From Sphingorhabdus sp. (GTDB taxonomy: Bacteria > Pseudomonadota > Alphaproteobacteria > Sphingomonadales > Sphingomonadaceae), in contig JAZGFP010000002.1 in the NCBI GenBank assembly GCA_036479555.1, positions 286,802 through 350,801 on the forward strand: a stretch of 64,000 nt of DNA, written 5' to 3'. Both the position numbers and the translations under genes were made by a program. How positions within the stretch are numbered: the stretch's first letter is position 1; every line of letters starts with the position of its first letter. Positions 4,489 through 19,045 of this stretch are shown piece by piece. Under the pieces are notes generated by a model, which saw only the letters and a program-made list of their open reading frames with translations, was not told the DNA's origin and did no database searches.

Positions 4489-4554
4489 CTTTGGGCGATA
4501 GCTGTTGATGCGATCCTTTTATGGTCACGAATAATGATAAGGGAAGCAAGGATT

Positions 4555-5160
4555 ATGACGAAGATTTTTACGCTGAAAACGGCTTATATGGCGGCGCTTA
4601 TGGCTGCTGCGGCATCCGGTTCGCTGGTCGCCATGGCGATTTCAGTAAAGGCGGAGGCGCGCACGGTTTCGGCCGCTGCAGCGCTTTTGCAGGGCGTAAC
4701 GCTTTCTAGCAAGGCGATGGTTGAGCGCGTGGAGAAATCCGCCGATGGCAGCGAGAATGTCGTGCTCAAAAGCCCCAAGGACGTGATTGTCATCCCCGGT
4801 GACAAGGTGATTTTCACGCTGAGCTATACCAATAAAGGTAGCGAAGCTGCGTCGGGATTTCGCGCGACCAACCCGATGCCCGCCCCGATCCGGTTTATCG
4901 AAGCTGCCGAGGGCTGGGCGCTGGTGTCGGTCGATGGCGGCAAGAATTTTGGACAGCTTTCCGATCTGACCGTGATCGAGCGGCACGAAGAAGCTGCGAT
5001 ACTTGACCCCGAAAGCGGCGAGACAGTGCAGAAGGCTTCCTCGGCAGACGTCACCCGCGCGGCTATTGCCCAGGACGTGACCCACGTCCGCTGGGCCTTT
5101 ACCAAACCAATTGCGCCCGGTGAAAAGGGCAGCGTCTCCTATCGCGGGGTGGTGAAGTAA
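4555..5160 (+). CDS. Exported DUF11/conserved-repeat-domain-like beta-sandwich protein
   Basis: Signal-peptide-like N-terminus; PGDKVIFTLSYTNKG...TNPMP, SVDGGKNFG, VTHVRW, VSYRGVVK; start moved to ATG 4555. Confidence 0.7.
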   Translation: MTKIFTLKTAYMAALMAAAASGSLVAMAISVKAEARTVSAAAALLQGVTLSSKAMVERVEKSADGSENVVLKSPKDVIVIPGDKVIFTLSYTNKGSEAASGFRATNPMPAPIRFIEAAEGWALVSVDGGKNFGQLSDLTVIERHEEAAILDPESGETVQKASSADVTRAAIAQDVTHVRWAFTKPIAPGEKGSVSYRGVVK

Positions 5161-6384: not shown

Positions 6385-6448
6385 ACCGCGTAAATTACAA
6401 GTAAGCACGACTATGACTAAGCAAGTACTACACAAGGGGAATACGACC

Positions 6449-7006
6449 ATGAAGAAACTGATTGCAACCGCGCTGTTTGGCGCAACAATGCTGACGGCAG
6501 CTACATCTGCCTCTGCTACCACATATATCTACAAACAGAATAACGGCGCGGTATTGACGCTTGATACAGCCAACAACCGTGGCACGCTGATCGGGCGCGA
6601 CATTAATGTCAGCTTTACCAGCAGCGATCTTGCCAATTTCACCGGCGGCGCGAAGCCGAGCGGTTCATTCACGCTCGATAACCTTGATGGATACCGCAAG
6701 ATCCGCGGTCGCCGCTATTATGACAATCCGTCGCATACGCAAAAGCTGATCATCTCAGACAATGGCCGCACCAACCTGTGGTCTCACTGGGGTACGACCC
6801 CGCGCTATGGCGACTATATCACTTATGTGCGCAAATATTATCCGCCCACAACCGGAAGTTCGGGCGGATCCACGAGCACCGGCGGCAGCACGGGCGGCGG
6901 ATCAACCGGCGGCACTGATGTTCCGGCACCCGGCATGCTCGCACTCTTCGGCCTTGGCGCAGGCGCACTAGCCTTCCGCCGCCGCCGGAACAAGAAAAAC
7001 GCATAA
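6449..7006 (+). CDS. PEP-CTERM (VPAP variant) sorting-domain surface protein
   Basis: Signal peptide MKKLIATALFG..., Gly/Ser/Thr linker, C-terminal VPAPGMLALFGLGAGALAFRRRR. Confidence 0.9.
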   Translation: MKKLIATALFGATMLTAATSASATTYIYKQNNGAVLTLDTANNRGTLIGRDINVSFTSSDLANFTGGAKPSGSFTLDNLDGYRKIRGRRYYDNPSHTQKLIISDNGRTNLWSHWGTTPRYGDYITYVRKYYPPTTGSSGGSTSTGGSTGGGSTGGTDVPAPGMLALFGLGAGALAFRRRRNKKNA

Positions 7007-7229: not shown

Positions 7230-7502
7230 TCAAACCTCCACACCCCGCACTAAAATCCGGTAGTCCTGCATCGGGATGCATAGCTGCGCTTCACTACCTT
7301 CGCCGCTTCTACCTCCCTCGCGGGCATAGTGGGCGTCGATCATGCGGCGTAGGCGGCCCATCTGGACGCGGGGGTAGCTGTCCAGTTGAGGATCGAAGTC
7401 GCAGGGCTTTCCAAGTGCTTCAACCGCGATTGTGTAGGATTTCAAGTGAAAGGGGCTGCCTGACATGCGGTGATCGACGGAGGTAATTTTTCCGGGTTTC
7501 AT
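7230..7502 (-). CDS. Cassette 1 gene E: stand-alone 90-aa homologue of the N-terminal (putative winged-helix) domain of the 17342-19045 receptor
   Basis: KSYTIAVEALGKPCDFDPQLDSYPRVQMGRLRRM is 23/34 identical to the receptor segment; ATG overlaps the JAB stop (ATGA). Confidence 0.7.
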   Translation of the reverse strand: MKPGKITSVDHRMSGSPFHLKSYTIAVEALGKPCDFDPQLDSYPRVQMGRLRRMIDAHYAREGGRSGEGSEAQLCIPMQDYRILVRGVEV

Positions 7503-8206
7503 AACGTTGCTCCTTTCTCTTGGCTGCGTGCAAACAGGCCCTCGCAACTGCGGCGCAGGCTGTTGCTGCCCCCACGTCCGACAATGATGTGATCGAGCAG
7601 CGCTATACCCATCAGGCTTGCAGCCGCGGCGATTTCTCTAGTCAGCCTCAAGTCTTCGTGGCTCGGCTGTGTGTCGCCTGATGGATGATTGTGGACCAGG
7701 ATCAGCGCGGAAGCATTTTCAGCGAGCGCATGGCGGATGATTTCGCGCGGATGGGCCTGCACCTTGTCAACGGTGCCCCGCCACAGCGTGTGATCGGCTA
7801 GGAGGTGGTTGGCGCTATCGAGGAAAAATACGCGGAATGTTTCAATCTCTAGGCCCGCCATATCAAGCTGCAGATAGGGGAATAGATCGTCAGGTGCGGC
7901 GATAACGTTGCCACCGGCGAGGCGATGCTGAGTGCCCGAGATAATGGTGTTGACCAAATATCGCAAGCGCGCGCCAATGCGCTGCGATGTGCCAAGGTTT
8001 TCGCCGCCGGTCGTTAACACTTTGGCAAATATGTGATCGAGCGAACCATGGCGCGCGATCATTTGCCGACTGGTGGACAATGCGCCGGCGCCGGCCGGGC
8101 CGGCAAGAAGGTCTGTGAGGACGGCTAGGTCGGTGTCTCGGCCTTGCTGCGCTGCACATGCCGATATGTCGCGATCAGCAGCATCAGCATCTGCGGATAA
8201 GACCAT
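7499..8206 (-). CDS. Cassette 1 gene D: RadC-like JAB/MPN-domain protein
   Basis: IETFRVFFLD, HPREII, LILVHNHPSGDTQPSHED, LDHIIVG; start inferred at ATG 8206. Confidence 0.88.
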   Translation of the reverse strand: MVLSADADAADRDISACAAQQGRDTDLAVLTDLLAGPAGAGALSTSRQMIARHGSLDHIFAKVLTTGGENLGTSQRIGARLRYLVNTIISGTQHRLAGGNVIAAPDDLFPYLQLDMAGLEIETFRVFFLDSANHLLADHTLWRGTVDKVQAHPREIIRHALAENASALILVHNHPSGDTQPSHEDLRLTREIAAAASLMGIALLDHIIVGRGGSNSLRRSCEGLFARSQEKGATL

Positions 8207-8547
8207 ATGCCCTGCATCACGCCGAGCGCGTAGGATTGGAGATTGTCGCCGAAATAGGCCACGAAATGCGCGCCTAGGGCGATGAGCTGGGTTGCGGCGA
8301 TGGGTAGAGGCCAAAATCGTTCACTCCGGAAGGCAATCCAGAGGAAGATCGCTGTGACCACCATCTCGTTGATTGCCAGTAATGGGCTGGGTTCAAGCCA
8401 GTTTCGGCCAGTTTCCCAGTAGATTATTGCGGTAGTGAAGCTGCCAAGATACAAGGTTATCATCACGATTTTCTGTGAGCGGCTTCCCCAGATGAGGATA
8501 GCAATCAAGCAGACTGAAGACAGAATATCGTAAATTGTACCGATCAT
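8125..8547 (-). CDS. Cassette 1 gene C: small 4-5-TM membrane protein
   Basis: Hydrophobic segments; SERFW, Q..H, W..P, ATYRH shared with 16277-16720; GGGGA SD before ATG 8547. Confidence 0.8.
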   Translation of the reverse strand: MIGTIYDILSSVCLIAILIWGSRSQKIVMITLYLGSFTTAIIYWETGRNWLEPSPLLAINEMVVTAIFLWIAFRSERFWPLPIAATQLIALGAHFVAYFGDNLQSYALGVMQGIWSYPQMLMLLIATYRHVQRSKAETPT

Positions 8548-8602
8548 TTTGGTCCCCAATATTAAGGGGCTGCAGCATCACCATCTTCACGGCGAGGTCA
8601 AG

Positions 8603-8947
8603 CTATGCGATACGTAAATGGGTTTCGCTTAACGATTGACCCGAAGGCTGATCTTTCCATTTGTCGCCTCCAGCTTTTGCCGGTATCCGCATCTTCTGGC
8701 GAACTTCGGCAAAACCGCCATGCGCGTCGATGACCGCATTCTGCGCTGCATAGAGCGCGGCGATGGTTTCGCCCGTTTTTGCTACTGCATCCTGTCCGAC
8801 AATCGTGGACGCCCTGATATCGCGCCGGGCGGTTGACGTGGCGCAAGTCAAATTTGCCGCACACACCAGCGCTTCATCGATTGCGGTCTCCAGCGCGAAT
8901 AGTTTTTCTGCGACCATCTGGGTCGCGGCTAATCTTTCATTCAACAT
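8603..8947 (-). CDS. Cassette 1 gene B: 114-aa 'MLNER' alpha-helical protein of unknown function
   Basis: GGGAGG SD before ATG 8947; 11/21 N-terminal identities to 15866-16231. Confidence 0.85.
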   Translation of the reverse strand: MLNERLAATQMVAEKLFALETAIDEALVCAANLTCATSTARRDIRASTIVGQDAVAKTGETIAALYAAQNAVIDAHGGFAEVRQKMRIPAKAGGDKWKDQPSGQSLSETHLRIA

Positions 8948-9010
8948 AAGCACCTCCCGCTTGCAAAGCGCATGCACGCCAGCAAGTTTGCTGGTTGGGA
9001 AATCAGTCGC

Positions 9011-9586
9011 TCAATAGAACTTGGAAAGATTCTCTGCGATGCCGACAAGTACTGCAAAAATAACGATAGATATTATCATCAATATTGAGATTGCCAGCGC
9101 CCTTCGTGCAAAGGACATTTCGTTCCGGCGACTATTCTCCCACAGAACCGAAAATGGAAACTGGATGAACTTTCCGCCTTCTTCGCCCGCAAAATACGCT
9201 GCTTGCGCTTCATGAGCGGAAAATGTCCCGTTATCCTCCGCCGGGTTCCATTCGCCGGGGGACGACCTTGTTTGAGGGTATTCAGGGGCAGCGGGCAACG
9301 CCGGAGATTGGTATACCAATGATTGGTCACTCACAGATTCGTCAGCATGCAGGCGATTCTCGCGGTATATGCGGGCTGCTTCGAAGCGTGAGCTGACGCC
9401 CAGCAATGATTGCACACGCTTTAGCCGCTGATCGACTGTATGCGGGGATATGCCAAGGTCACGCGCGATTTCTTTGCTATTCTTGAGCTGCTCGACACCG
9501 TTCAATACATCGAAATGGAGGTCATCCAGCAGGCTGAAGTCTGGCAAATCGCCATTGTCGGAATTTTTGATGCCGCCCCTCGTCAT
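9011..9586 (-). CDS. Cassette 1 gene A: LuxR/sigma-r4-type HTH regulator with C-terminal TM helix
   Basis: SKEIARDLGISPHTVDQRLKRVQSLLGVSSRFEAAR; C-terminal ALAISILMIISIVIFAVLVGI. Confidence 0.88.
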   Translation of the reverse strand: MTRGGIKNSDNGDLPDFSLLDDLHFDVLNGVEQLKNSKEIARDLGISPHTVDQRLKRVQSLLGVSSRFEAARIYRENRLHADESVSDQSLVYQSPALPAAPEYPQTRSSPGEWNPAEDNGTFSAHEAQAAYFAGEEGGKFIQFPFSVLWENSRRNEMSFARRALAISILMIISIVIFAVLVGIAENLSKFY

Positions 9587-9659
9587 AATATTGGAGTATC
9601 ATAGGTGGCGCTTTCTTTCCAGCCGCGCATTTGCACCTATTTCGAGATGTAACCGAATG

Positions 9660-10754
9660 TTATCTCACGTTAACTTGACGGCGAATGCTGCCAGGAATTG
9701 CCGCAAGCTTTGCCTGCGCAGCGCTTTCGTCTCCTGCTGCCCGGTAAGCGCGGATCAGGCCGCCATGATATTCGGGCAGGTCGGGACGGCTCCGAAGCGC
9801 GCCTTCCATCAGATGAATGGCCTTCCATGGCTGGCCGAGCTTGAGCAAAGTCTTGCCCGAAAGGAACATTGCTTCTGAGTCGCTTTCGACAAGATCGCGT
9901 GCGTTGGCAAAATGCGTGCGGGCATTGGCATAGCGCGCTTGCCGCACGGCGATTTTGCCTGCTAGCAATTGCATTTCGGGGCGCTGCACCACACCTTTCG
10001 GCAGGCCATGCAGCCGCTTGAGAGCGGCGCCGAATTTCTTTTGCGCATAGAGCGCGCCAGCTAGCCCGGCCTGCGCATTGTTGCTCCCCGGAGCAAGATT
10101 AAGTGCGGCAATAAATGCGGCTTCAGCGGCTTTATAGTCGCGCGCGCGCATGTCGATATCGCCTAGCGTTAGCGCAGCGATGATATTTTCCGGCTGGGCC
10201 TTTTGCACACGCCTAACTGCTTCCCGCGCTTCGGGGAAAAGCCCAAGTTCGCTCCGCGCTCTTGCCAGGTCGATGGCCAGGCGGTGGTTGGTAGAATCTA
10301 GCCTATAAGCTTCTTCGAGCGCTTCGCGCGCATCCCAAGGCTTGTTCGCGGCCCAAGCGTTGAGCCCCCGGACAAAGGCTATGGTTGCCTTGCGGCCGCT
10401 CTTTTTGGCACTGGCAATTGCCTTCTCTGGCCTTTGCTGACGAGCCTGTGCTTCGGCCAGTAAGGGCAGTATTGTCTTCTCGGCGATGCCCGCGGACTTG
10501 GCTGCATGCAGACTGGTTTCTGCACCAGTTCCATCGCCGCGCGCGAGATCAACTTGCGCCGCGATCAGGCGGATTTTGCCGTTGCTCTCCCCCGCCTTGA
10601 AGGCCGACGCGATTAACCCGCGCGCCTTGCCAAAATTTCCGCGCTCATAGACCTGCTCGATAAGCTGCGCATCGGGCGCGTTGGAACCGCCTATATTGCA
10701 GGCGGCAAGCAGGCAAGTCGCAGCGATGGCCAGCGGAAATCGGGTCACTTTCAT
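9660..10754 (-). CDS. TPR-repeat lipoprotein (PrsT-like)
   Basis: LAAC lipobox; tandem Ala/Leu-rich TPR-like helical repeats. Confidence 0.75.
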   Translation of the reverse strand: MKVTRFPLAIAATCLLAACNIGGSNAPDAQLIEQVYERGNFGKARGLIASAFKAGESNGKIRLIAAQVDLARGDGTGAETSLHAAKSAGIAEKTILPLLAEAQARQQRPEKAIASAKKSGRKATIAFVRGLNAWAANKPWDAREALEEAYRLDSTNHRLAIDLARARSELGLFPEAREAVRRVQKAQPENIIAALTLGDIDMRARDYKAAEAAFIAALNLAPGSNNAQAGLAGALYAQKKFGAALKRLHGLPKGVVQRPEMQLLAGKIAVRQARYANARTHFANARDLVESDSEAMFLSGKTLLKLGQPWKAIHLMEGALRSRPDLPEYHGGLIRAYRAAGDESAAQAKLAAIPGSIRRQVNVR

Positions 10755-10843
10755 GGCTCAACTCAATAGCAGCCAAGGGTAAATATATGGCTTATGCGCT
10801 GCCAAGCTTGCGCCGCTGCGCGCCGCTGCCTAATGACAGCGCG

Positions 10844-11227
10844 ATGAAAGCGATTTTCCTAGTTATGGCAGGCGGCGGTGTGGGCGCGGCTTTGCGGCAT
10901 TTGCTCGGGCGTGCCTTGGCGCAGCAGGCGGCGGCCACCGGTTGGCCATGGGGCACCTTTGCGGTGAATTTGCTGGGCGGATTTGCAATGGGTTTGCTGG
11001 TAGGCTGGTTGGCACAGCGCGGACAGGGAGATGAGAATTTGCGGCTGCTATTGGGCGTTGGGCTGCTCGGCGGCTTTACGACATTTAGCGCGTTTAGCCT
11101 TGAGGCGGCGTTGATGATTGAGCGCGGGCAGGCGATGCTTGCTCTCGGATACGCACTGGCTTCGGTGGTGCTCGCGGTATTCGCGCTATTTGCCGGACTG
11201 TGGATCGCGCGCGGGGTGTTTGCATGA
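10844..11227 (+). CDS. crcB: Fluoride efflux channel CrcB/FluC
   Basis: GGGVGAALR, PWGTFAVN, GLLGGFTTFSAF. Confidence 0.96.
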   Translation: MKAIFLVMAGGGVGAALRHLLGRALAQQAAATGWPWGTFAVNLLGGFAMGLLVGWLAQRGQGDENLRLLLGVGLLGGFTTFSAFSLEAALMIERGQAMLALGYALASVVLAVFALFAGLWIARGVFA

Positions 11228-12471
11228 GCACCTCGAAGGATGTGCGGCAGTTTAATGTCGGTATTGATGATGACGGTATCCGGCTTGATCGCTGGTTCAA
11301 GCGGCATATGGCCGATGCGCCCTTTGCATTGGTGAGCCGCTGGGCGCGCACCGGGCAGCTGCGGTTGGATGGTAAGCGCGTGCAGGTATCGGACCGGATA
11401 GCTACCGGCCAAACTATCCGCGTACCCCCCGTTTCTGCAGATGCGATTAAAAAACGCACGGCGCGCAGGCGGATCGAGCTTAGCGCAGAGCAGATTGAGA
11501 TGGCGCGCTCCTTGGTGATCCACCGGGACCGAGCGGCGCTTGTGCTCAATAAACCTCCGGGGCTGGCGACGCAGGGCGGTACAAAGATTTCCCAGCATAT
11601 TGATGGCCTTCTCGATGCTTACTGCGAAGAGGATGATGAACCGCGCCCGCGGCTTGTCCACCGCCTGGACAAAGATACATCGGGCGCGCTGCTGGTTGCT
11701 CGCTCACCGGGCAGTGCGGCCTATTTTTCGAAGCATTTTTCGGGGCGCAGCGCGCGAAAAACATATTGGGCGCTGGTGATGGGTGTCCCCGATGTGAAGG
11801 ACGGTGTCATCGAATTACCGCTGGCCAAACAGCCAGGCACCGGCGGCGAAAAAATGTATGTCGATGAGGTTGAGGGGCAGACCGCCAAGTCGCGCTACCG
11901 GGTTATCGAAATAGCCGGAGATCGTTGCGCCTGGGTCGAGCTAACTCCTTTCACCGGACGCACACATCAACTGCGAGTTCATATGGCAGCGATTGGCCAT
12001 CCGATTGTCGGTGACGGCAAATATGGCGGTAAAGAAGCGTTCCTGACCGGCAGTATCAGCCGCAAGATGCACTTGCATGCGAGGGCCATAAAAATTGGTC
12101 ATCCCGATGGCGGCAAAATTTATGTTCGCGCTGATCCGCCCAAGCATTTTCTGGCCAGCCTTGGTGCGCTCGGCTTTGACCCCGATGCCGGCGACTTGCC
12201 CGATGATGAGAAGCGCCCGCCGATGACGCGGGCAAAGGCGAAACAAGTGGCGCGCCACCATTCCAAACAGATCCGCAAGGAACGGCGCGGTGAACGGCGC
12301 GGGCGCGCCGATGCGAAGGCAGCAACAAAGGCCGGGACAAAGGTGGGAAGGGGCGCGAAGGCAGGCGCGCGCGCGAAGGATGAAAAGCCCAAAAGGCGGC
12401 CGCCCAGACCCACTGGGCCTGTCCACAAGAAGACCGCCGGCCAGCCGCGAAAACGCAAAAAGAAATTTTAG
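11224..12471 (+). CDS. RluA/RluC-family pseudouridine synthase with S4 domain and basic C-terminal tail
   Basis: GIRLDRWF, LNKPPGL, VHRLDKDTSG, TGRTHQLRVH; ATGA overlap with crcB. Confidence 0.95.
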   Translation: MSTSKDVRQFNVGIDDDGIRLDRWFKRHMADAPFALVSRWARTGQLRLDGKRVQVSDRIATGQTIRVPPVSADAIKKRTARRRIELSAEQIEMARSLVIHRDRAALVLNKPPGLATQGGTKISQHIDGLLDAYCEEDDEPRPRLVHRLDKDTSGALLVARSPGSAAYFSKHFSGRSARKTYWALVMGVPDVKDGVIELPLAKQPGTGGEKMYVDEVEGQTAKSRYRVIEIAGDRCAWVELTPFTGRTHQLRVHMAAIGHPIVGDGKYGGKEAFLTGSISRKMHLHARAIKIGHPDGGKIYVRADPPKHFLASLGALGFDPDAGDLPDDEKRPPMTRAKAKQVARHHSKQIRKERRGERRGRADAKAATKAGTKVGRGAKAGARAKDEKPKRRPPRPTGPVHKKTAGQPRKRKKKF

Positions 12472-12479
12472 GGAGCTAA

Positions 12480-13100
12480 ATGATGCATCCCGATCCGGCA
12501 TTCCGTACCAAACTCAGCCCCGCCGATGAAAGGCTGATGCTTGAAGCATTAGTGCGAGAGATCGGTTTTGGCACGATATTCCTGACCACGCCCGATGGGC
12601 CGCGTGTGGCGCATGTCGCTTTTTTTGGCAGCGGTGACGGTGCGCTCCAGTTCCATCTCGCAAATAGCAATGCGCTGACAAAACATCTTGACGGCAATGC
12701 CGCGCTGGCACTCGTCAACGGCCCCGATGCCTATATCAGCCCCGATTGGTATGAAGCAGACGATCAGGTGCCGACATGGGACTATGTTAGCGTTGAAATG
12801 GAAGGGCCGGTGCGCAAGATGGATCGAGAAGGGTTGATCGCGCTGCTCGATGATCTTGCCCGCGAGAATGAAGAACGGCTCGCCCCCAAAGCCCCGTGGA
12901 CGCGGGAACAGATTGATGGCGTAAAGATGGACCGTATGCTTGGCGCGATCACCGGTTTCGAGATGGAGGTAAAGGCGTGGCGGCCCACATTGAAGCTATC
13001 GCAGAATAAGCCGGCAGAGGTGCGCGAACGCGTGGCGGTGCAGCTCGAAGCGCAAGGCAAAGCTGCGATGGCCCACCTGATCCGTCAATGGGGCGGGTGA
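12480..13100 (+). CDS. FMN-binding negative transcriptional regulator (PaiB family)
   Basis: FHLANSN, GPDAYISPDWY, VPTWDY, KLSQNK. Confidence 0.9.
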   Translation: MMHPDPAFRTKLSPADERLMLEALVREIGFGTIFLTTPDGPRVAHVAFFGSGDGALQFHLANSNALTKHLDGNAALALVNGPDAYISPDWYEADDQVPTWDYVSVEMEGPVRKMDREGLIALLDDLARENEERLAPKAPWTREQIDGVKMDRMLGAITGFEMEVKAWRPTLKLSQNKPAEVRERVAVQLEAQGKAAMAHLIRQWGG

Positions 13101-13101
13101 G

Positions 13102-13764
13102 GTGATGAAGCGGCTGGCTCTTTTTGATTGTGATGGCACGCTGGTGGACGGTCAGGCGAATCATTTTCAGGCGATGGAGCAGGCATTTTTCGCCGCTGAC
13201 ATCGAACCGATACCGCGCAGTGAAACGCGGCGAGTGATCGGGCTTTCGCTACTTGAATCGATGCGCGTTCTGGCACCGGAAACCGGTGAAGATACGCGCC
13301 GCGCAATGGTGGAGAGCTACAAATCTGCCTTCCTTGAAATGCGCGGTAACGGGGCAATCGAAGAGCCGCTGTATGAGGGTATGCGCGAATTGCTGGTGGC
13401 GCTTGATGGTGACGGCTGGATGCTGGGTGTGGCGACGGGCAAGTCAGATCGCGGCCTGACAAAATGCCTTGCACATCACGGGATAACCGACCTGTTTGTT
13501 TCCTTGCAAACAGCCGATAGGCACCCGTCAAAACCGCACCCTTCGATGGTCTATCAGGCGATGGGCGATGCCGGTGTTGACGCTGACGGCACCGTGATGA
13601 TCGGTGATACCGTCTATGATATCGAAATGGGAAAGGCCGCCGGTTGCCGCACGATTGCTGTGGGCTGGGGCTATCACGGGATTGATGAAATGCACGCAGC
13701 GGGGGCGGGCGCGCTGGCGGAAACGATGGCAGAGTTAAAGCAGATTTTGGGAGAATTCACATGA
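13102..13764 (+). CDS. HAD-IA family hydrolase (phosphoglycolate phosphatase-like)
   Basis: FDCDGTLVD, ATGK, SKPHP, MIGDTVYD. Confidence 0.93.
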   Translation: MMKRLALFDCDGTLVDGQANHFQAMEQAFFAADIEPIPRSETRRVIGLSLLESMRVLAPETGEDTRRAMVESYKSAFLEMRGNGAIEEPLYEGMRELLVALDGDGWMLGVATGKSDRGLTKCLAHHGITDLFVSLQTADRHPSKPHPSMVYQAMGDAGVDADGTVMIGDTVYDIEMGKAAGCRTIAVGWGYHGIDEMHAAGAGALAETMAELKQILGEFT

Positions 13765-14000
13765 CGCCAGTGGAAAAGGAGCAGCGGGCTTTCGGGCGTT
13801 TTCAAATACTCAATATTTCGCGCTTTGTTGCGGTCGGCTTTGTGATGGCTGGGGCGGCCAATATTGTTGGAAAGTTTATGCCCGAATATTCCCCCATCCT
13901 TGGCTATACATTGCTGGTAATCGGCGTGGTTGATTTCTTCCTGATGCCGGTCGCGCTCAAAAAAATGTGGGCGCAGCAAGCTGGCGACGAACAAAAGTGA
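13761..14000 (+). CDS. Small two-TM membrane protein
   Basis: Two hydrophobic segments; 4-nt overlaps with both neighbours. Confidence 0.7.
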   Translation: MTPVEKEQRAFGRFQILNISRFVAVGFVMAGAANIVGKFMPEYSPILGYTLLVIGVVDFFLMPVALKKMWAQQAGDEQK

Positions 14001-14689
14001 AGCGTTTCTGGCAGGACGTCGTGGTTGAAGAGCGGGATGGCGGCCATGCCATCCTGCTCGACGAGCGCGTAGTGAAGACGCCTTTGCACGGCGAACTTAT
14101 CCTGCCCAATGAGGCGCTCGCCAATGCGGTGCTTGCCGAATGGGCCGGCGTGGGCGAGGAAGTTGATCCCGCCACCATGCCGATGACCGGCTTTGCCAAC
14201 GCCGCGATTGACAAGGTGGCATCGGAGCGGGCTACCTTCGTTGATACAATCGCTGCGTATGGCGAAGCAGACCTTTTCTGCTACCGCGCCGAAAACCCGC
14301 GGCCGCTTGTTGACCGGCAAGACGAGCAATGGGGCAAATGGCTACGCTGGGCGCAGGCGCATTATTCCCTCAGCTTCACTGTCATCTCCGGCATTATCCA
14401 TCAGCCACAGCCCGAGGATACCGTCGCGCGGCTCAAAGAAGCGGTGGAGGAGCTGTCTGACTGGCAATTGGCCGCCGCATCGAAGCTGGCGCATATATCG
14501 GGGTCGCTCGTTGCTATGCTCGCGTTGGTGGACGAGGAGGCGAGCGCAGCGGTAATCTGGCCAGACCTGATCCTCGACGAGCTATGGCAGGAAGAGCATT
14601 GGGGTGCGGATGAATTCGCGCTGAAAAACCGGCAAGACCGCGAAGTGGAGTTTATGGATGCCGCCAGGTTTATGACGATGTGCCGATGA
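13997..14689 (+). CDS. ATP12/ATPAF2-family chaperone
   Basis: KRFWQDV, LLDERVVKTP, EWAG, MPMTGFANAAID, LFCYRA, DELWQEEHWGAD; GTG start 13997. Confidence 0.92.
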   Translation: MKRFWQDVVVEERDGGHAILLDERVVKTPLHGELILPNEALANAVLAEWAGVGEEVDPATMPMTGFANAAIDKVASERATFVDTIAAYGEADLFCYRAENPRPLVDRQDEQWGKWLRWAQAHYSLSFTVISGIIHQPQPEDTVARLKEAVEELSDWQLAAASKLAHISGSLVAMLALVDEEASAAVIWPDLILDELWQEEHWGADEFALKNRQDREVEFMDAARFMTMCR

Positions 14690-15144
14690 TCGTATCGGTG
14701 CCGGATGTCCGGCCGCATTGATCACTATTGCACCTGGGTGGCTATCAATTGGCAATAAGCGAGTTTGCCAATTTTCGGGCCGGACCCAAGTGTGGGTGTA
14801 TTGGAATCCGGCCCGAATATGATAGTCAGACGAAGCGGCTTGGATGGTCAGTTTGCTTCATCTGCTAGGTCATGCATCCCAGCAAATTTGAGACATGGAC
14901 CAGAAGACCCAAATTTCGCTGGAGCGCAGTATGTTCGCAATGACGATGAACCGTCGCGGGGACCAGCCCTGATTCATCTTCGCTTCGAACGATCTGGGTT
15001 ATGGAGGAACAGCGCGGTTAATTGGAGTTACAACCCGTATCAGATACCGTGATCCGCGGTAACAAGTTAACGATGTTGGTTGAGTCGGCCTGAATTCCAG
15101 TTACTGTGGTGGAGCTTCTGTGTTCATAGTTAATATTTTGTAAC

Positions 15145-15163
15145 GGTAACACTGTTTGTTACC
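15145..15163. promoter_or_regulatory. Operator-like inverted repeat GGTAACA-N5-TGTTACC upstream of cassette 2
   Basis: Perfect 7-bp inverted repeat in an AT-rich stretch ~95 nt upstream of gene A2. Confidence 0.45.
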
Positions 15164-15258
15164 TACATCTTGATGCGGTTTGAGCGCCGAAAACCTCCCT
15201 TTGGCTGCGCCGGGAGCATGTAAGGCGGCATGCGGTATTTTTTGCTAAATATCTGAAA

Positions 15259-15804
15259 TTGGGCTATGGAAGCCAAATGGTTGGTTCGGATTTTGAAAGT
15301 CTGATGGAGAAGGAACGGGCAGCACTTCGTCTTGTGCTTTGTGGCTTTGACGCAAAAGCAGCTGCGCGCGAAATCAATGTGACGCCAAATGTCATCGTCG
15401 AACGACTGCGCTCAGCTCGCCAAAAACTAGGCGTTACCAGCAGCAAAGAGGCAGCTCGGTTGCTTGCCCAGCATGAAGGTATCGCACCCAATTTTCTTGT
15501 ATCCAAGAAAATTGGAATTGTTTCGCCACCCAAAACTATAGCAATAAATCCCTTGCCTGATCGACAGGCAGCGACATCCGATCAAAATGTGGTCAGAGAA
15601 ATACAAGCGACTTACCAGTCTTACTCGTCTTTCTCCAATCCGTTGGTATCGGTGCCGTTTCGCAAGCAGGGAGAAGTTGGTAATGATCTGAGTAAATCGG
15701 CGAGATTTTGGGCAATTGCTGACCTGACCGTCAAACTTGCCTTTGCCTTCGCATTTGTTTGCCTGGCAGCAATCCTCGTCAGCACTTTGATCAACCGCGC
15801 CTAA
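15259..15804 (+). CDS. Cassette 2 gene A: LuxR-type HTH regulator with C-terminal TM helix
   Basis: AKAAAREINVTPNVIVERLRSARQKLGVTSSKEAAR; REIQATY / PF...NDLS..AR matches HEAQAAY / PF...NEMS.ARR of 9011-9586; C-terminal TM; start uncertain. Confidence 0.85.
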   Translation: MGYGSQMVGSDFESLMEKERAALRLVLCGFDAKAAAREINVTPNVIVERLRSARQKLGVTSSKEAARLLAQHEGIAPNFLVSKKIGIVSPPKTIAINPLPDRQAATSDQNVVREIQATYQSYSSFSNPLVSVPFRKQGEVGNDLSKSARFWAIADLTVKLAFAFAFVCLAAILVSTLINRA

Positions 15805-15865
15805 ATTTCCTGCTAAACTTTGACCTGTAAAGTCGCGCCGATGTTGAACGGCGCAGGGGGAATGT

Positions 15866-16231
15866 ATGTTGAACGAACGTATAGAAGCAGCCCGGCCTAT
15901 CGCCGAAAAAATCAATGAAGTAGAAACTTCACTGAATACGACGATGATGCAAATGGGCGAATTGATGAGCAGTATCGCTGCTGCACGCCTATCGCCTGGA
16001 ACCAGGTTCGCGCTTTCGTCCGGTGTTGATGCATCGGAAAAACTGATCGACGCTGCAGCTACCACAGCGCGTAGCTATCGAGAGGTTGTCGCGGCGCATG
16101 AGCATTTGGTAGCTGACCGCAATGCGGCCGGCCTGCGTGCGGTAAGCTGGGGCCCAGCCGGATGCCCGCCAGAAAAAGGTGAGGCAGAATCTGCTCAAGG
16201 TGTCTACCTTGAAGCGGTCGCCAATTCCTAA
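15866..16231 (+). CDS. Cassette 2 gene B: 121-aa 'MLNER' alpha-helical protein
   Basis: GGGGGA SD; homologous to 8603-8947. Confidence 0.85.
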   Translation: MLNERIEAARPIAEKINEVETSLNTTMMQMGELMSSIAAARLSPGTRFALSSGVDASEKLIDAAATTARSYREVVAAHEHLVADRNAAGLRAVSWGPAGCPPEKGEAESAQGVYLEAVANS

Positions 16232-16276
16232 TGGACCCGCCTTGACCGGACTGAATTATTTTGGTTTGGTCAAGGC

Positions 16277-16720
16277 ATGTCCATCAACGGCTTGTTCGAG
16301 TTTCTGCTGATACTTTCCACGGGCTATGCTCTTGTTAAGGGCGGGATGCCTGAACGTGTTGCAGCCGTTACCATGCTTGCCGGTTATGTGCTTACCATAG
16401 CCGTCGTTTCACCAACGGCATCGAGATTCCTATACATGGAATATCGAATAATGTTGGTGGATATTATGATGCTGGCAAGCTTTCTTTTTCTAGCGTTAAA
16501 TGCAGAGAGATATTGGACAATATGGTTGTGCTCAATGCAAGTTGTACAGGTGTTCACTCACTTTCCGATAATGTTCATGCCGGAGCTGTTACCCCGGGCC
16601 TACGCTTTGGTGGTGGCAGTTTGGGCAATTCCAATGCTGGCAGTTTTAACGCTTGCAACCTTCCGCCACCGACGGCGTCTCAGACAATTCGGGACCGACA
16701 GATCCTGGAGCAGCTCCTAA
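16277..16720 (+). CDS. Cassette 2 gene C: small 4-5-TM membrane protein
   Basis: AERYW, Q...H, W..P, ATFRH shared with 8125-8547. Confidence 0.82.
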   Translation: MSINGLFEFLLILSTGYALVKGGMPERVAAVTMLAGYVLTIAVVSPTASRFLYMEYRIMLVDIMMLASFLFLALNAERYWTIWLCSMQVVQVFTHFPIMFMPELLPRAYALVVAVWAIPMLAVLTLATFRHRRRLRQFGTDRSWSSS

Positions 16721-17286
16721 CAGTTGCCAAAATAGCAACAGCGTCAAGCGTCGCAGACGATCTGCTCCACGAATATGGTACATTGGCAGCGGCCTTGTCG
16801 GCTAGCCTGGAATCTAAAGTGATCGATCCGGTGTCGGCCTTATTGTCTTCGGTTCAGCAGGCATTGATTGAATCGGTGAGGCCAAAGGTCGCCGATCGGA
16901 AACGCCTTTCAAGCGCCGCCGACGTTATCGAATATCTAATTGTCGCGATGGCAAATTTGCCGATCGAAGTGGTCCGCGTGCTCTTTCTTGATATCCAAAA
17001 CCGCCTGATACGAGACGAGATTGTAGGTCGGGGTTCGGTATCTGAAGCACCTATTTATCCGCGTGAAATTTTGAAACGGTCTTTGGCGCTAGGCGCTACT
17101 GCCCTGATCCTTGCGCATAACCACCCTTCTGGAGATCCTGAGCCTAGCGAAGCTGACATTCTGGCAACGCATAGATTGGCAACAGCTGGCGCAGAGCTTG
17201 GTATCGCTGTGCATGATCACATTATAGTTGGACAGGCTGGCTGGGTCAGCATGCGGGATAATGAACAATTTCAGGATCAGGGGTAG
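16621..17286 (+). CDS. Cassette 2 gene D: RadC-like JAB/MPN-domain protein
   Basis: IEVVRVLFLD, YPREIL, LILAHNHPSGDPEPSEAD, HDHIIVG; start inferred at TTG 16621 after GGTGG. Confidence 0.88.
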   Translation: MGNSNAGSFNACNLPPPTASQTIRDRQILEQLLTVAKIATASSVADDLLHEYGTLAAALSASLESKVIDPVSALLSSVQQALIESVRPKVADRKRLSSAADVIEYLIVAMANLPIEVVRVLFLDIQNRLIRDEIVGRGSVSEAPIYPREILKRSLALGATALILAHNHPSGDPEPSEADILATHRLATAGAELGIAVHDHIIVGQAGWVSMRDNEQFQDQG

Positions 17287-17341
17287 GCAAAAAGTAGAAG
17301 TAGCGCTTGGGGAAATGTCAACTGGTTGTGGGGACAAAGAC

Positions 17342-19045
17342 ATGACATCGCATTCAAACATCGAGCATGGATCCAAGCAGGTCATGTCAGAACTTGAAGA
17401 GGTTTTGAATGCTCGGGAGTTTGTCAGATCACCAGTGATGTCGCGGCTGCTGACTTATCTTGTCGAACAATCATTATCCAATCCGGACAATCCTCCAAAG
17501 GCATATCATGTGGCAGTTGAGGGGCTTGGCCGGGCCGATGACTTTGATGTGCAGGCTGACAGTTATCCGCGGGTGCAAGTGGGGCGGCTGCGCAAAATGC
17601 TCGCTGCGTATTATGCGGAAATTGGCATTGGCCAACGGATCTGCATTCCGACGGGACACTATGCTGTGGTCTTTGACCATGGTCAGGTGGGCGCGGCAGC
17701 CACAGAGAACCAAAACGCCGCCCAGTCGCCCTTCGAAGGTGCAGGCAACCGTAAGCAAAAAAATCCGTGGAAGCAAAAATTGATGCCCCATTTAATGGCC
17801 GTGGCGATAGTGCTGGTCGCCGCCATTTTGCTGCTACCATCGCTCATTAATGGCCTCGCCCATGATAGCAAATTTGCGTTCTTTTCAACAACAGACAATT
17901 TCCGAAAGCCGCCAATATTATACATCGGCGCGGTAAAGTATGATGCTGATGTGGAAGCGTCCAAAACTGCAGGAGCAATCACAACCTTTCTCACAGATGC
18001 GTTTCAACGCTTCCACTCAATCCGGGTTTCTTCCCAAAATAAGGTGGCGGTGACGAAAGATGGAATATCCAATGCCTATTGGCTCGATAGCGAACTGGTG
18101 GGCGCGGGAAGAAATTGGCTGGTCAGGCTTCAACTTGTGGCGCTTGATCGCAAAGAGATTGTTTGGTCGCGGCAAATTTCGATCCTCGAAGGTCGCCATG
18201 ATCTGCCAGCAAAATTGGAGCCAATAGTATCAAAAATCGCGAGTATTTACGGCGTGATCCCGGATGACCAGAGAGCACAGCTTGGATCACGTAGGCTGCT
18301 CGGATATTCGTGCGTACTCCAGTTTGAAGAATATCGCCGCATAAGATCGCCTGAAATGCTAGAAGATGTCCAGAAATGTATTGATGCTACTTTGGAAGTG
18401 GCGCCGCTCGATCCCGGTATTTTGTCGGCTGCATCCTTCCTAGAATATCTCGACAATGATGTGTCGCGGCGCGAAGGCAATGCAGAAAAAGGCACCAAGC
18501 TTGCCAGCAAAGCCCTTATTCGCGGAAAGAACAATGCCGTTGCAAATTTTGGAGTGGCCCGCGCTGCTTTTTTTGCTGGAAACTGCCAGCGGGGCGTGCA
18601 TTACACACGCAAAGCTCTGCGCCTCAACCCTCTTGAACATGATGTTTTGATCAACGCGGGAGCTTTTTTGCTAGCTTGCGAAAATCCCGATGGGGAAAAA
18701 TATTTGCAGCGCGCTATCACTCTCGACCCTGACGGGCTGGTTACGCAATATACTACGCTGGTATTTCTGAAAATATCGCAAGGAAAAGGCGACGAAGCGC
18801 TTGCGTTGGCAGAGAGCATGGTGCCGCCTGCCGGAAGGGCTGAACCACACTATCACCTTGCCATGGCCATGGTGTATGCAGAAAACGGCCAGAGGGAAAA
18901 AGCAAAAGACGCCTGGAAACATTTGGAAAGCCAGTTTGGCACATCTGGCGTGAGCGATCCGGAACAGATATTGGGCGCCTTCATCACATCCAAGCCTTTG
19001 ATCAAGCATGGCCTCCAAATATTGCGCAGCAAGGATGTTATTTGA
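17342..19045 (+). CDS. Cassette 2 gene E: single-pass membrane receptor-like protein (N-terminal putative winged helix, TM, TolB-N-like domain, TPRs)
   Basis: FVRSPVMSRLLTYLVE...AYHVAVEGLGR..DFDVQADSYPRVQVGRLR; TM LMAVAIVLVAAILLLPSLI; C-terminal TPR-like repeats; GGGGA SD 7 nt before ATG 17342. Confidence 0.85.
   Translation: MTSHSNIEHGSKQVMSELEEVLNAREFVRSPVMSRLLTYLVEQSLSNPDNPPKAYHVAVEGLGRADDFDVQADSYPRVQVGRLRKMLAAYYAEIGIGQRICIPTGHYAVVFDHGQVGAAATENQNAAQSPFEGAGNRKQKNPWKQKLMPHLMAVAIVLVAAILLLPSLINGLAHDSKFAFFSTTDNFRKPPILYIGAVKYDADVEASKTAGAITTFLTDAFQRFHSIRVSSQNKVAVTKDGISNAYWLDSELVGAGRNWLVRLQLVALDRKEIVWSRQISILEGRHDLPAKLEPIVSKIASIYGVIPDDQRAQLGSRRLLGYSCVLQFEEYRRIRSPEMLEDVQKCIDATLEVAPLDPGILSAASFLEYLDNDVSRREGNAEKGTKLASKALIRGKNNAVANFGVARAAFFAGNCQRGVHYTRKALRLNPLEHDVLINAGAFLLACENPDGEKYLQRAITLDPDGLVTQYTTLVFLKISQGKGDEALALAESMVPPAGRAEPHYHLAMAMVYAENGQREKAKDAWKHLESQFGTSGVSDPEQILGAFITSKPLIKHGLQILRSKDVI

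Follow-up and report, generated by a model that had tools for sequence, protein, structure and literature searches.

What do small helical proteins do when their genes travel with those of membrane-anchored regulators? This question is raised by a stretch of 64,000 nucleotides (nt) from Sphingorhabdus sp. (contig JAZGFP010000002.1, positions 286,802 to 350,801 of the forward strand), hereafter the window, which encodes two proteins of the MLNER type, MLNER-A and MLNER-B. In this work, we found that both belong to an unnamed protein family that occurs almost only in Sphingomonadaceae. The fold of the family is one long helical hairpin, its C-terminus is conserved, and its genes are linked to two others: upstream a gene for a LuxR/GerE-type helix-turn-helix (HTH) protein with a C-terminal transmembrane (TM) anchor (HTH-TM), and downstream a gene for a small protein with about four TM segments (4-TM). 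These results define the MLNER family by its fold, invariant residues, strict gene partners, and C-terminal signature. The gene linkage and the C-terminus suggest, with a probability that we put at about 0.4, that MLNER is a soluble regulatory subunit, with a short lifetime, of a membrane-tethered HTH/4-TM module.

The two genes and the parts of MLNER-B are as follows.

8603-8947, minus strand: MLNER-A, 114 amino acids (aa); start ATG 8947; hairpin as in MLNER-B; tail GGDKWKDQPSGQSLSETHLRIA; end ...HLRIA.
15866-16231, plus strand: MLNER-B, 121 aa; Shine-Dalgarno (SD) sequence AGGGGG ahead of ATG 15866; end ...YLEAVANS.
15869-15991, plus strand: helix 1 of MLNER-B (residues 2-42), followed by a loop (residues 43-53).
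16025-16126, plus strand: helix 2 of MLNER-B (residues 54-87), followed by the tail (residues 88-121).

Both open reading frames (ORFs) had been proposed as genes in a preliminary description of this DNA, and we found that they are real and homologous (29% identity across 78 aa, E 1e-6). Each scores 1e-28 to 1e-34 with the family profile, and a profile search of the whole source genome found exactly these two copies. For MLNER-A, the mechanical ORF opens farther upstream, at GTG 8977. We place the start at ATG 8947 because it yields the family N-terminus (M1 in 97%, consensus 'MLN.R') and because GGAGG lies 6 nt upstream of it; with this motif and the AGGGGG of MLNER-B, the strong SD sequences described earlier were found at both genes. 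The absence of a signal peptide was likewise borne out: there is no hydrophobic N-terminus or TM segment, and the highest mean Kyte-Doolittle hydropathy over 19 residues is 1.2 in MLNER-A and 0.68 in MLNER-B. With a hydrophilic N-terminus, no TM segment, and no export signal, MLNER is probably cytoplasmic. Neither protein has a meaningful match in Pfam (scanned at E<=1), NCBIfam, PADLOC, or PHROGs. A 212-aa antisense ORF (15427-16065, minus strand) overlaps both the HTH-TM gene, at its end, and MLNER-B, at its start; it is low in complexity, rich in Arg, Ser, Ala, and Cys, and most likely a spurious frame opposite real genes.

Word-based searches recovered 93 relatives of MLNER-B (47-80% identity for the aligned ones), mostly from Parasphingorhabdus and Sphingorhabdus, and just five of MLNER-A. 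The relatives of MLNER-B are nearly all annotated as hypothetical, apart from one JGI record with the evident mislabel 'phage-related tail protein'. A family profile built from both subfamilies and scored against 1.84 billion representatives identified 960 clusters (50% identity) at E<=1e-3, 364 of them at E<=1e-10, with lengths of 110-125 aa in nearly every case; every naming source looked up for these clusters gives 'hypothetical protein' except one JGI mislabel as a tRNA-modification enzyme. Of 174 genomes sampled from the GTDB family to which the window belongs, 110 encode an MLNER protein, and it was found in none of 126 genomes across nine other families of the same order; these genome counts, like the locus counts below, include related genomes and so are not independent samples. 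A class-wide sample of 300 genomes added one single MLNER-bearing genome from outside the window's GTDB family (G403). About 60% of the sampled Sphingomonadaceae species carry, in one to three copies, a three-gene module whose only part with a known family is the HTH domain, and a full-text literature search for a described LuxR-TM/RadC module in sphingomonads returned nothing relevant.

Structure prediction with AlphaFold2 was improved by the depth of the alignment. The mean predicted local distance difference test score (pLDDT) was 74.8 with 19 sequences and 88.7 with 101, the latter with a predicted TM-score (pTM) of 0.70. The model from 101 sequences is one long antiparallel hairpin, in which helices of residues 2-42 and 54-87 are joined by an 11-residue loop and no strands are present. 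The pLDDT is 91-98 over the hairpin and 57-75 over the C-terminal third, which is not helical. The two long helices with a central Gly turn that had been read from the letters were therefore recovered, and the turn Gly of 'VGQDA/SSGVDA' is conserved in 93% of 101 diverse family members (alignment A3; MLNER-B numbering), the set used for residue conservation throughout. Foldseek found no specific relative of this fold. Its best E value was 0.9 in the PDB, searched with two models, and 0.6 among viral structures, and the matches listed were a mixture of hairpins, namely, Rad50, coronavirus S2, a chemoreceptor, FadA, and EsxA/B.

Among 39 related loci (37 genomes), MLNER is followed by the 4-TM gene in 38 (the lone exception is cut by a contig end) and preceded by the HTH-TM gene in 37, with constant order and strand and short spacers. 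A RadC-family gene was found in 13 of the 39 loci and a gene for a TM-TPR protein in fewer. Because these two occur only in a minority of loci, we regard the three-gene module as the core and the five-gene form in the window as an extended version. The tail type of MLNER is alike in loci with and without RadC; for this reason, and because RadC occurs in so few loci, the RadC/JAB protein was rejected as a general tail-processing protease. In G403, the locus (L042, G403:C3:46564-49854) has two tandem MLNER-like ORFs (1456-1872 and 1876-2259) followed by a 4-TM gene (2326-2778), and thioesterase-like genes occupy the upstream place where an HTH-TM gene would be; no HTH-TM gene is adjacent. MLNER and 4-TM form the tightest pair, since they are kept together here without the HTH-TM gene, and this suggests that the hairpin/4-TM pair is the minimal unit. 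Two ORFs in which HTH-TM and MLNER are fused (P0111, 298 aa; P0189, 303 aa) were set aside as evidence for a functional link. They represent 2 of 149 representatives examined, each is found on one contig, and the junction resembles a translated spacer, such that both are probably artifacts of frameshift or read-through; in a true fusion, the hairpin and the HTH domain would lie on opposite sides of the TM segment.

The C-terminal region was earlier described as a divergent Gly/Pro-rich segment, and this holds for only about 10 residues. After helix 2, the family has the pattern I-G-L-x5-G-D-x-x-K/C-P, with G96 in 99% and P101 in 69% of members, and in B-type orthologues the stretch G-L-R-T-V-S-W-G-D-x-x-E-C-P-P is almost invariant. 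The part that varies, in both sequence and length, follows the K/C-P motif (about residues 104-114) and contains 0.9% Cys; the distance from His78 to the C-terminus is 34-66 residues with a median of 42. Conservation then returns as an L-x-x-V motif near the end (L115 in 71%, V118 in 79%) and is marked at the terminus itself. Among 141 family representatives aligned from the C-terminus, position -1 is Ala in 77%, and position -2 is Ala in 60% and Val in 26%. Ala-Ala ends 71 of the 141 (50%) and Val-Ala another 27, so that [A/V]-A accounts for 70%. By comparison, among the 1939 genome ORFs that reach 200 aa, 3.0% end in Ala-Ala and 13% in Ala, and the 16% alanine content of the tail region would lead to about 2.6% Ala-Ala by composition. 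These data support a selective pressure that keeps [A/V]-A at the free C-terminus.

Such an end resembles the ssrA tag of the host, whose tmRNA encodes ANDNEALALAA, ending in LAA. Native C-terminal Ala-Ala degrons for ClpXP are found in CtrA of Caulobacter and in the RseA(1-108) fragment, which ends in VAA. The Ala-Ala carboxylate is essential to recognition by ClpXP, and for sigma-AntA of Streptomyces control by this protease was correctly predicted from a C-terminal Ala-Ala shared by 67 of 71 orthologues (PMC7142297). An unbiased screen in E. coli found ssrA-like Ala-Ala tags to be the sole robust short C-terminal degrons (PMC10862746). Like sigma-AntA-type regulators, MLNER appears to be a small cytoplasmic regulatory protein with an unstructured tail and a family-conserved Ala-Ala-COOH. 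It differs from them in that it has no kinship in sequence or fold, being a bare hairpin and not a sigma factor or anti-sigma domain, and in that Ala-Ala is present in only half of the family. At the level of the family, these statistics of C-terminal sequences suggest that the MLNER tail is a ClpXP-type degron, as the preliminary description had also considered; the two copies in the window, with the ends -RIA and -ANS, do not share the Ala-Ala that characterizes the family.

We therefore propose the following model for the regulatory subunit. The MLNER hairpin would dock on the cytoplasmic part of the HTH-TM protein, on the 4-TM protein, or on both, or it would instead pair with itself into a four-helix bundle. 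In either arrangement, it may serve as the soluble subunit of a membrane-tethered transcription switch. Its free C-terminus would act as an ssrA-like degron for ClpXP, which would make the protein short-lived, and its level would set the state of the switch. If the proteolysis is true, the family would provide a lineage-specific example of a regulator controlled by a native ssrA-like tag, and also a way into the control of a LuxR-type HTH protein that has a C-terminal TM segment and no sensor domain of its own. Partner switching of the PspA/PspF/PspBC type offers a parallel: there, a negative regulator built as a helical hairpin moves back and forth between small membrane proteins and a transcription factor. 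The proteins encoded together are of the same three kinds as in the MLNER module, namely, a transcription factor, a coiled-coil hairpin protein that is soluble, and a small integral protein of the membrane. However, the transcription factor of the MLNER module is itself anchored in the membrane, and MLNER is half the size of PspA, with no Pfam match to PspA/IM30 (PF04012) and no PspA, Vipp1, or ESCRT-III structure among the top 50 Foldseek PDB matches listed. A bolder version, which we regard as unlikely, is that the triad is a new sphingomonad-specific membrane-tethered switch in which the hairpin would read a signal through its Glu and His residues and act as a ClpXP-timed anti-factor shuttling between 4-TM and the anchored regulator, with paralogous cassettes serving as insulated parallel channels.

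Several observations weigh against a short-lived regulatory subunit. Binding of MLNER to HTH-TM or 4-TM is proposed from gene linkage, and the regulator may not be a direct partner because an adjacent HTH-TM gene is lacking in G403. Under a pure degron model, the conserved L-x-x-V and G96 are left without a role. Furthermore, any degron in MLNER-A and MLNER-B would be degenerate because their ends lack Ala-Ala, and most B-type orthologues end in -SA. Finally, Ala-Ala by itself is insufficient for degradation (PMC10862746).

Some of these points lead to the main rival explanation, which we consider doubtful, namely, that the tail is a docking peptide rather than a degron. The L-x-x-V...A-COOH end and the G-D-x-x-K-P motif would bind cytoplasmic loops of 4-TM or motifs in the HTH-TM linker (described below), and the hairpin would serve for scaffolding or assembly, e.g., as a chaperone for the tail-anchored HTH protein, with no regulated turnover. 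Such a role would explain why L115, V118, and G96 are conserved beyond the needs of a ClpX tag, and it is favored by the pairing of MLNER with 4-TM in G403 even without HTH-TM and by the lack of Ala-Ala in the copies of the window. The tail pLDDT, which climbed to 57-75 once the alignment was deep, also hints at partial order. However, the strongest conservation of the tail lies in the last two residues beside the free carboxylate, which is typical of ssrA-like tags, and none of the partners encoded in the core module has a domain for recognizing C-termini, PDZ for instance.

The hairpin itself carries a second set of constraints. Glu20 and His78 are the only residues invariant in all 101 members, and R5, L16, R41, G53, R71, L90, and G96 are conserved in at least 90%; the 'H..(F/L)' motif noticed earlier was upheld, with His in 100% and Leu or Phe at +3 in 99%. 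On helix 1, the conserved positions are spaced by 3-4 residues (2, 6, 9, 13, 16, 20, 23, 27, 30, and 33/34), and a second, Ala-rich stripe runs parallel to them. The numbers of conserved pairs add up to about 96 (16+81=97, 20+78=98, 24+71=95), which fits an antiparallel hairpin, and because of this register Glu20 is expected to roughly face His78 across the two helices. In the clade that includes MLNER-B, D24/Q54/R71 is replaced as a block by N24/(M,V,I)54/Y71 in seven of seven members. The change of D24/R71 to N24/Y71 is consistent with a contact between positions 24 and 71; as evidence of covariation it is weak, since it is confined to one clade and counts as a single evolutionary event. Position 54, at the start of helix 2, is far from 24 and 71 within one hairpin and might hint at an antiparallel dimer.

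These residues raise the possibility, decidedly unlikely in our judgment, that MLNER senses a signal through its hairpin. In a four-helix bundle made of two hairpins, a metal or other small ligand would be bound by the Glu20/His78 pairs together with Asp24, and MLNER would be the signal-sensing subunit. The strict invariance of a roughly facing Glu and His on a 3-4 spaced stripe of mostly hydrophobic or small residues is in line with this, and the only PDB sequence match in a profile search, which was not significant (E 0.051), is a ferritin four-helix bundle. Nevertheless, one buried pair of Glu and His can have a role in structure only, and neither an E-x-x-H or Cys motif nor a significant match to a metal-binding family was found. 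A sensor role of this kind is compatible with either a degron or a docking tail.

The preliminary description had favored a conserved leader followed by a hypervariable core, i.e., the precursor of a ribosomally synthesized and post-translationally modified peptide (RiPP) or a secreted peptide signal, in which the hairpin would be the leader and the variable core would be released, e.g., by the JAB protease, and exported. The first 100 residues are indeed more conserved than residues 104-114, as in NHLP/Nif11 long-leader precursors with their long conserved N-terminal part, and a JAB-family protease gene is present in both cassettes of the window. However, the family alignment contradicts this division. 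The variable stretch is a short spacer, not rich in Cys, Ser, or Thr, that is followed by a conserved C-terminal end, and the supposed leader is a confidently folded domain of 87 residues. Also unlike NHLP/Nif11 precursors, MLNER has no Gly-Gly site with a C39 exporter. No modifying enzyme, C39-peptidase/ABC exporter, or other RiPP gene was found in the cassettes or in their Pfam-scanned flanks (five inter-cassette genes were not scanned), where domains are limited to HTH, RadC, TPR, or housekeeping types, and none turned up in the 39 related loci, where the ORFs that were read or searched by BLAST gave only the triad, with or without RadC (the other ORFs there had no Pfam scan). Together with the absence of RadC from about two thirds of the loci, the independence of tail type from RadC, and the lack of an export signal, these results make a peptide precursor very improbable, and this tempting RiPP/quorum-peptide reading was removed as unsupported.

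A WXG100-like (ESAT-6/EsxA) substrate of a specialized secretion system, which the preliminary description had offered as another option, is hardly credible: although the generic likeness of a helical hairpin of roughly 100 residues stands and EsxA/EsxB appear among the Foldseek matches, these matches are not significant (E >3, TM-scores 0.3-0.5) and equal those to unrelated hairpins such as Rad50, coronavirus S2, and chemoreceptors, the turn (V-G-Q-D-A/S-G-V-D-A) lacks W-x-G, Trp has a frequency of 0.000 over the first 85 residues of 141 members, and PF06013 has no match at E<=1 in the MLNER proteins or anywhere in the genome.

In the window, the MLNER genes are part of two mirror-oriented cassettes, A (7230-9586, minus strand) and B (15259-19045, plus strand), which are about 5.7 kb apart and face away from each other. 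Their other genes are as follows.

9011-9586, minus strand: cassette A gene 1, LuxR/GerE-type HTH-TM protein, 191 aa (GerE E 3.4e-7; C-terminal TM ~157-190).
8125-8559, minus strand: cassette A gene 3, small multi-TM protein, 144 aa, no known family.
7499-8314, minus strand: cassette A gene 4, RadC-family JAB protein (RadC E about 1e-40; mechanical ORF coordinates).
7230-7547, minus strand: cassette A gene 5, 105-aa stub that matches only the N-terminal domain of the 605-aa protein of cassette B (E 5.6e-15 with the TPR query; locus L016).
15259-15804, plus strand: cassette B gene 1, LuxR/GerE-type HTH-TM protein, 181 aa (GerE E 5.9e-4, under the Pfam gathering score; TM ~150-181).
16277-16720, plus strand: cassette B gene 3, small multi-TM protein (about 4 TM), 147 aa, no known family.
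16513-17286, plus strand: cassette B gene 4, accessory RadC-family JAB protein (RadC E about 1e-40; mechanical ORF coordinates).
17228-19045, plus strand: cassette B gene 5, accessory protein of 605 aa with a conserved N-terminal domain, one TM segment (~183-213), and TPR repeats.

The four shared components are each 24-37% identical between the cassettes, and since all have diverged to a similar degree, the cassettes are old paralogues that diverged as units. In both HTH-TM proteins, the C-terminal TM anchor is the only hydrophobic segment. In the HTH-TM protein of cassette A (9011-9586, minus strand) and those of loci L006-L011, the linker between the HTH domain and the anchor has short motifs that recur in many cassettes (LVYQSP.L, GE.NP..D, and.Q..YFA); a partner such as MLNER is a candidate for docking at them. 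The genome has a third radC gene, of the canonical type, about 17 kb past the end of the window (G000:C2, about 367988-368700; L045 3489-4874, minus strand), with a large helicase-like gene and a ferredoxin gene as its neighbors. Because this canonical radC is present elsewhere in the genome, the RadC proteins of the cassettes are extra paralogues rather than the housekeeping copy.

The GC content of the cassettes (0.52-0.54) is slightly under that of their surroundings (0.56-0.60). The 5.7-kb block between them consists of housekeeping-like ORFs, among which Pfam confirms just a TPR lipoprotein (9660-10754); the translations of the others bear a likeness, judged by eye, to CrcB, a pseudouridine synthase, a PaiB-like protein, a HAD phosphatase, and an ATP12-like protein. 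Just past cassette A, a 197-aa secreted protein (6413-7006, plus strand) has a Gly/Ser/Thr-rich linker and a PEP-CTERM signal (PF07589, E 6.5e-5), and a DUF11-like protein (4534-5160) is encoded upstream of it.

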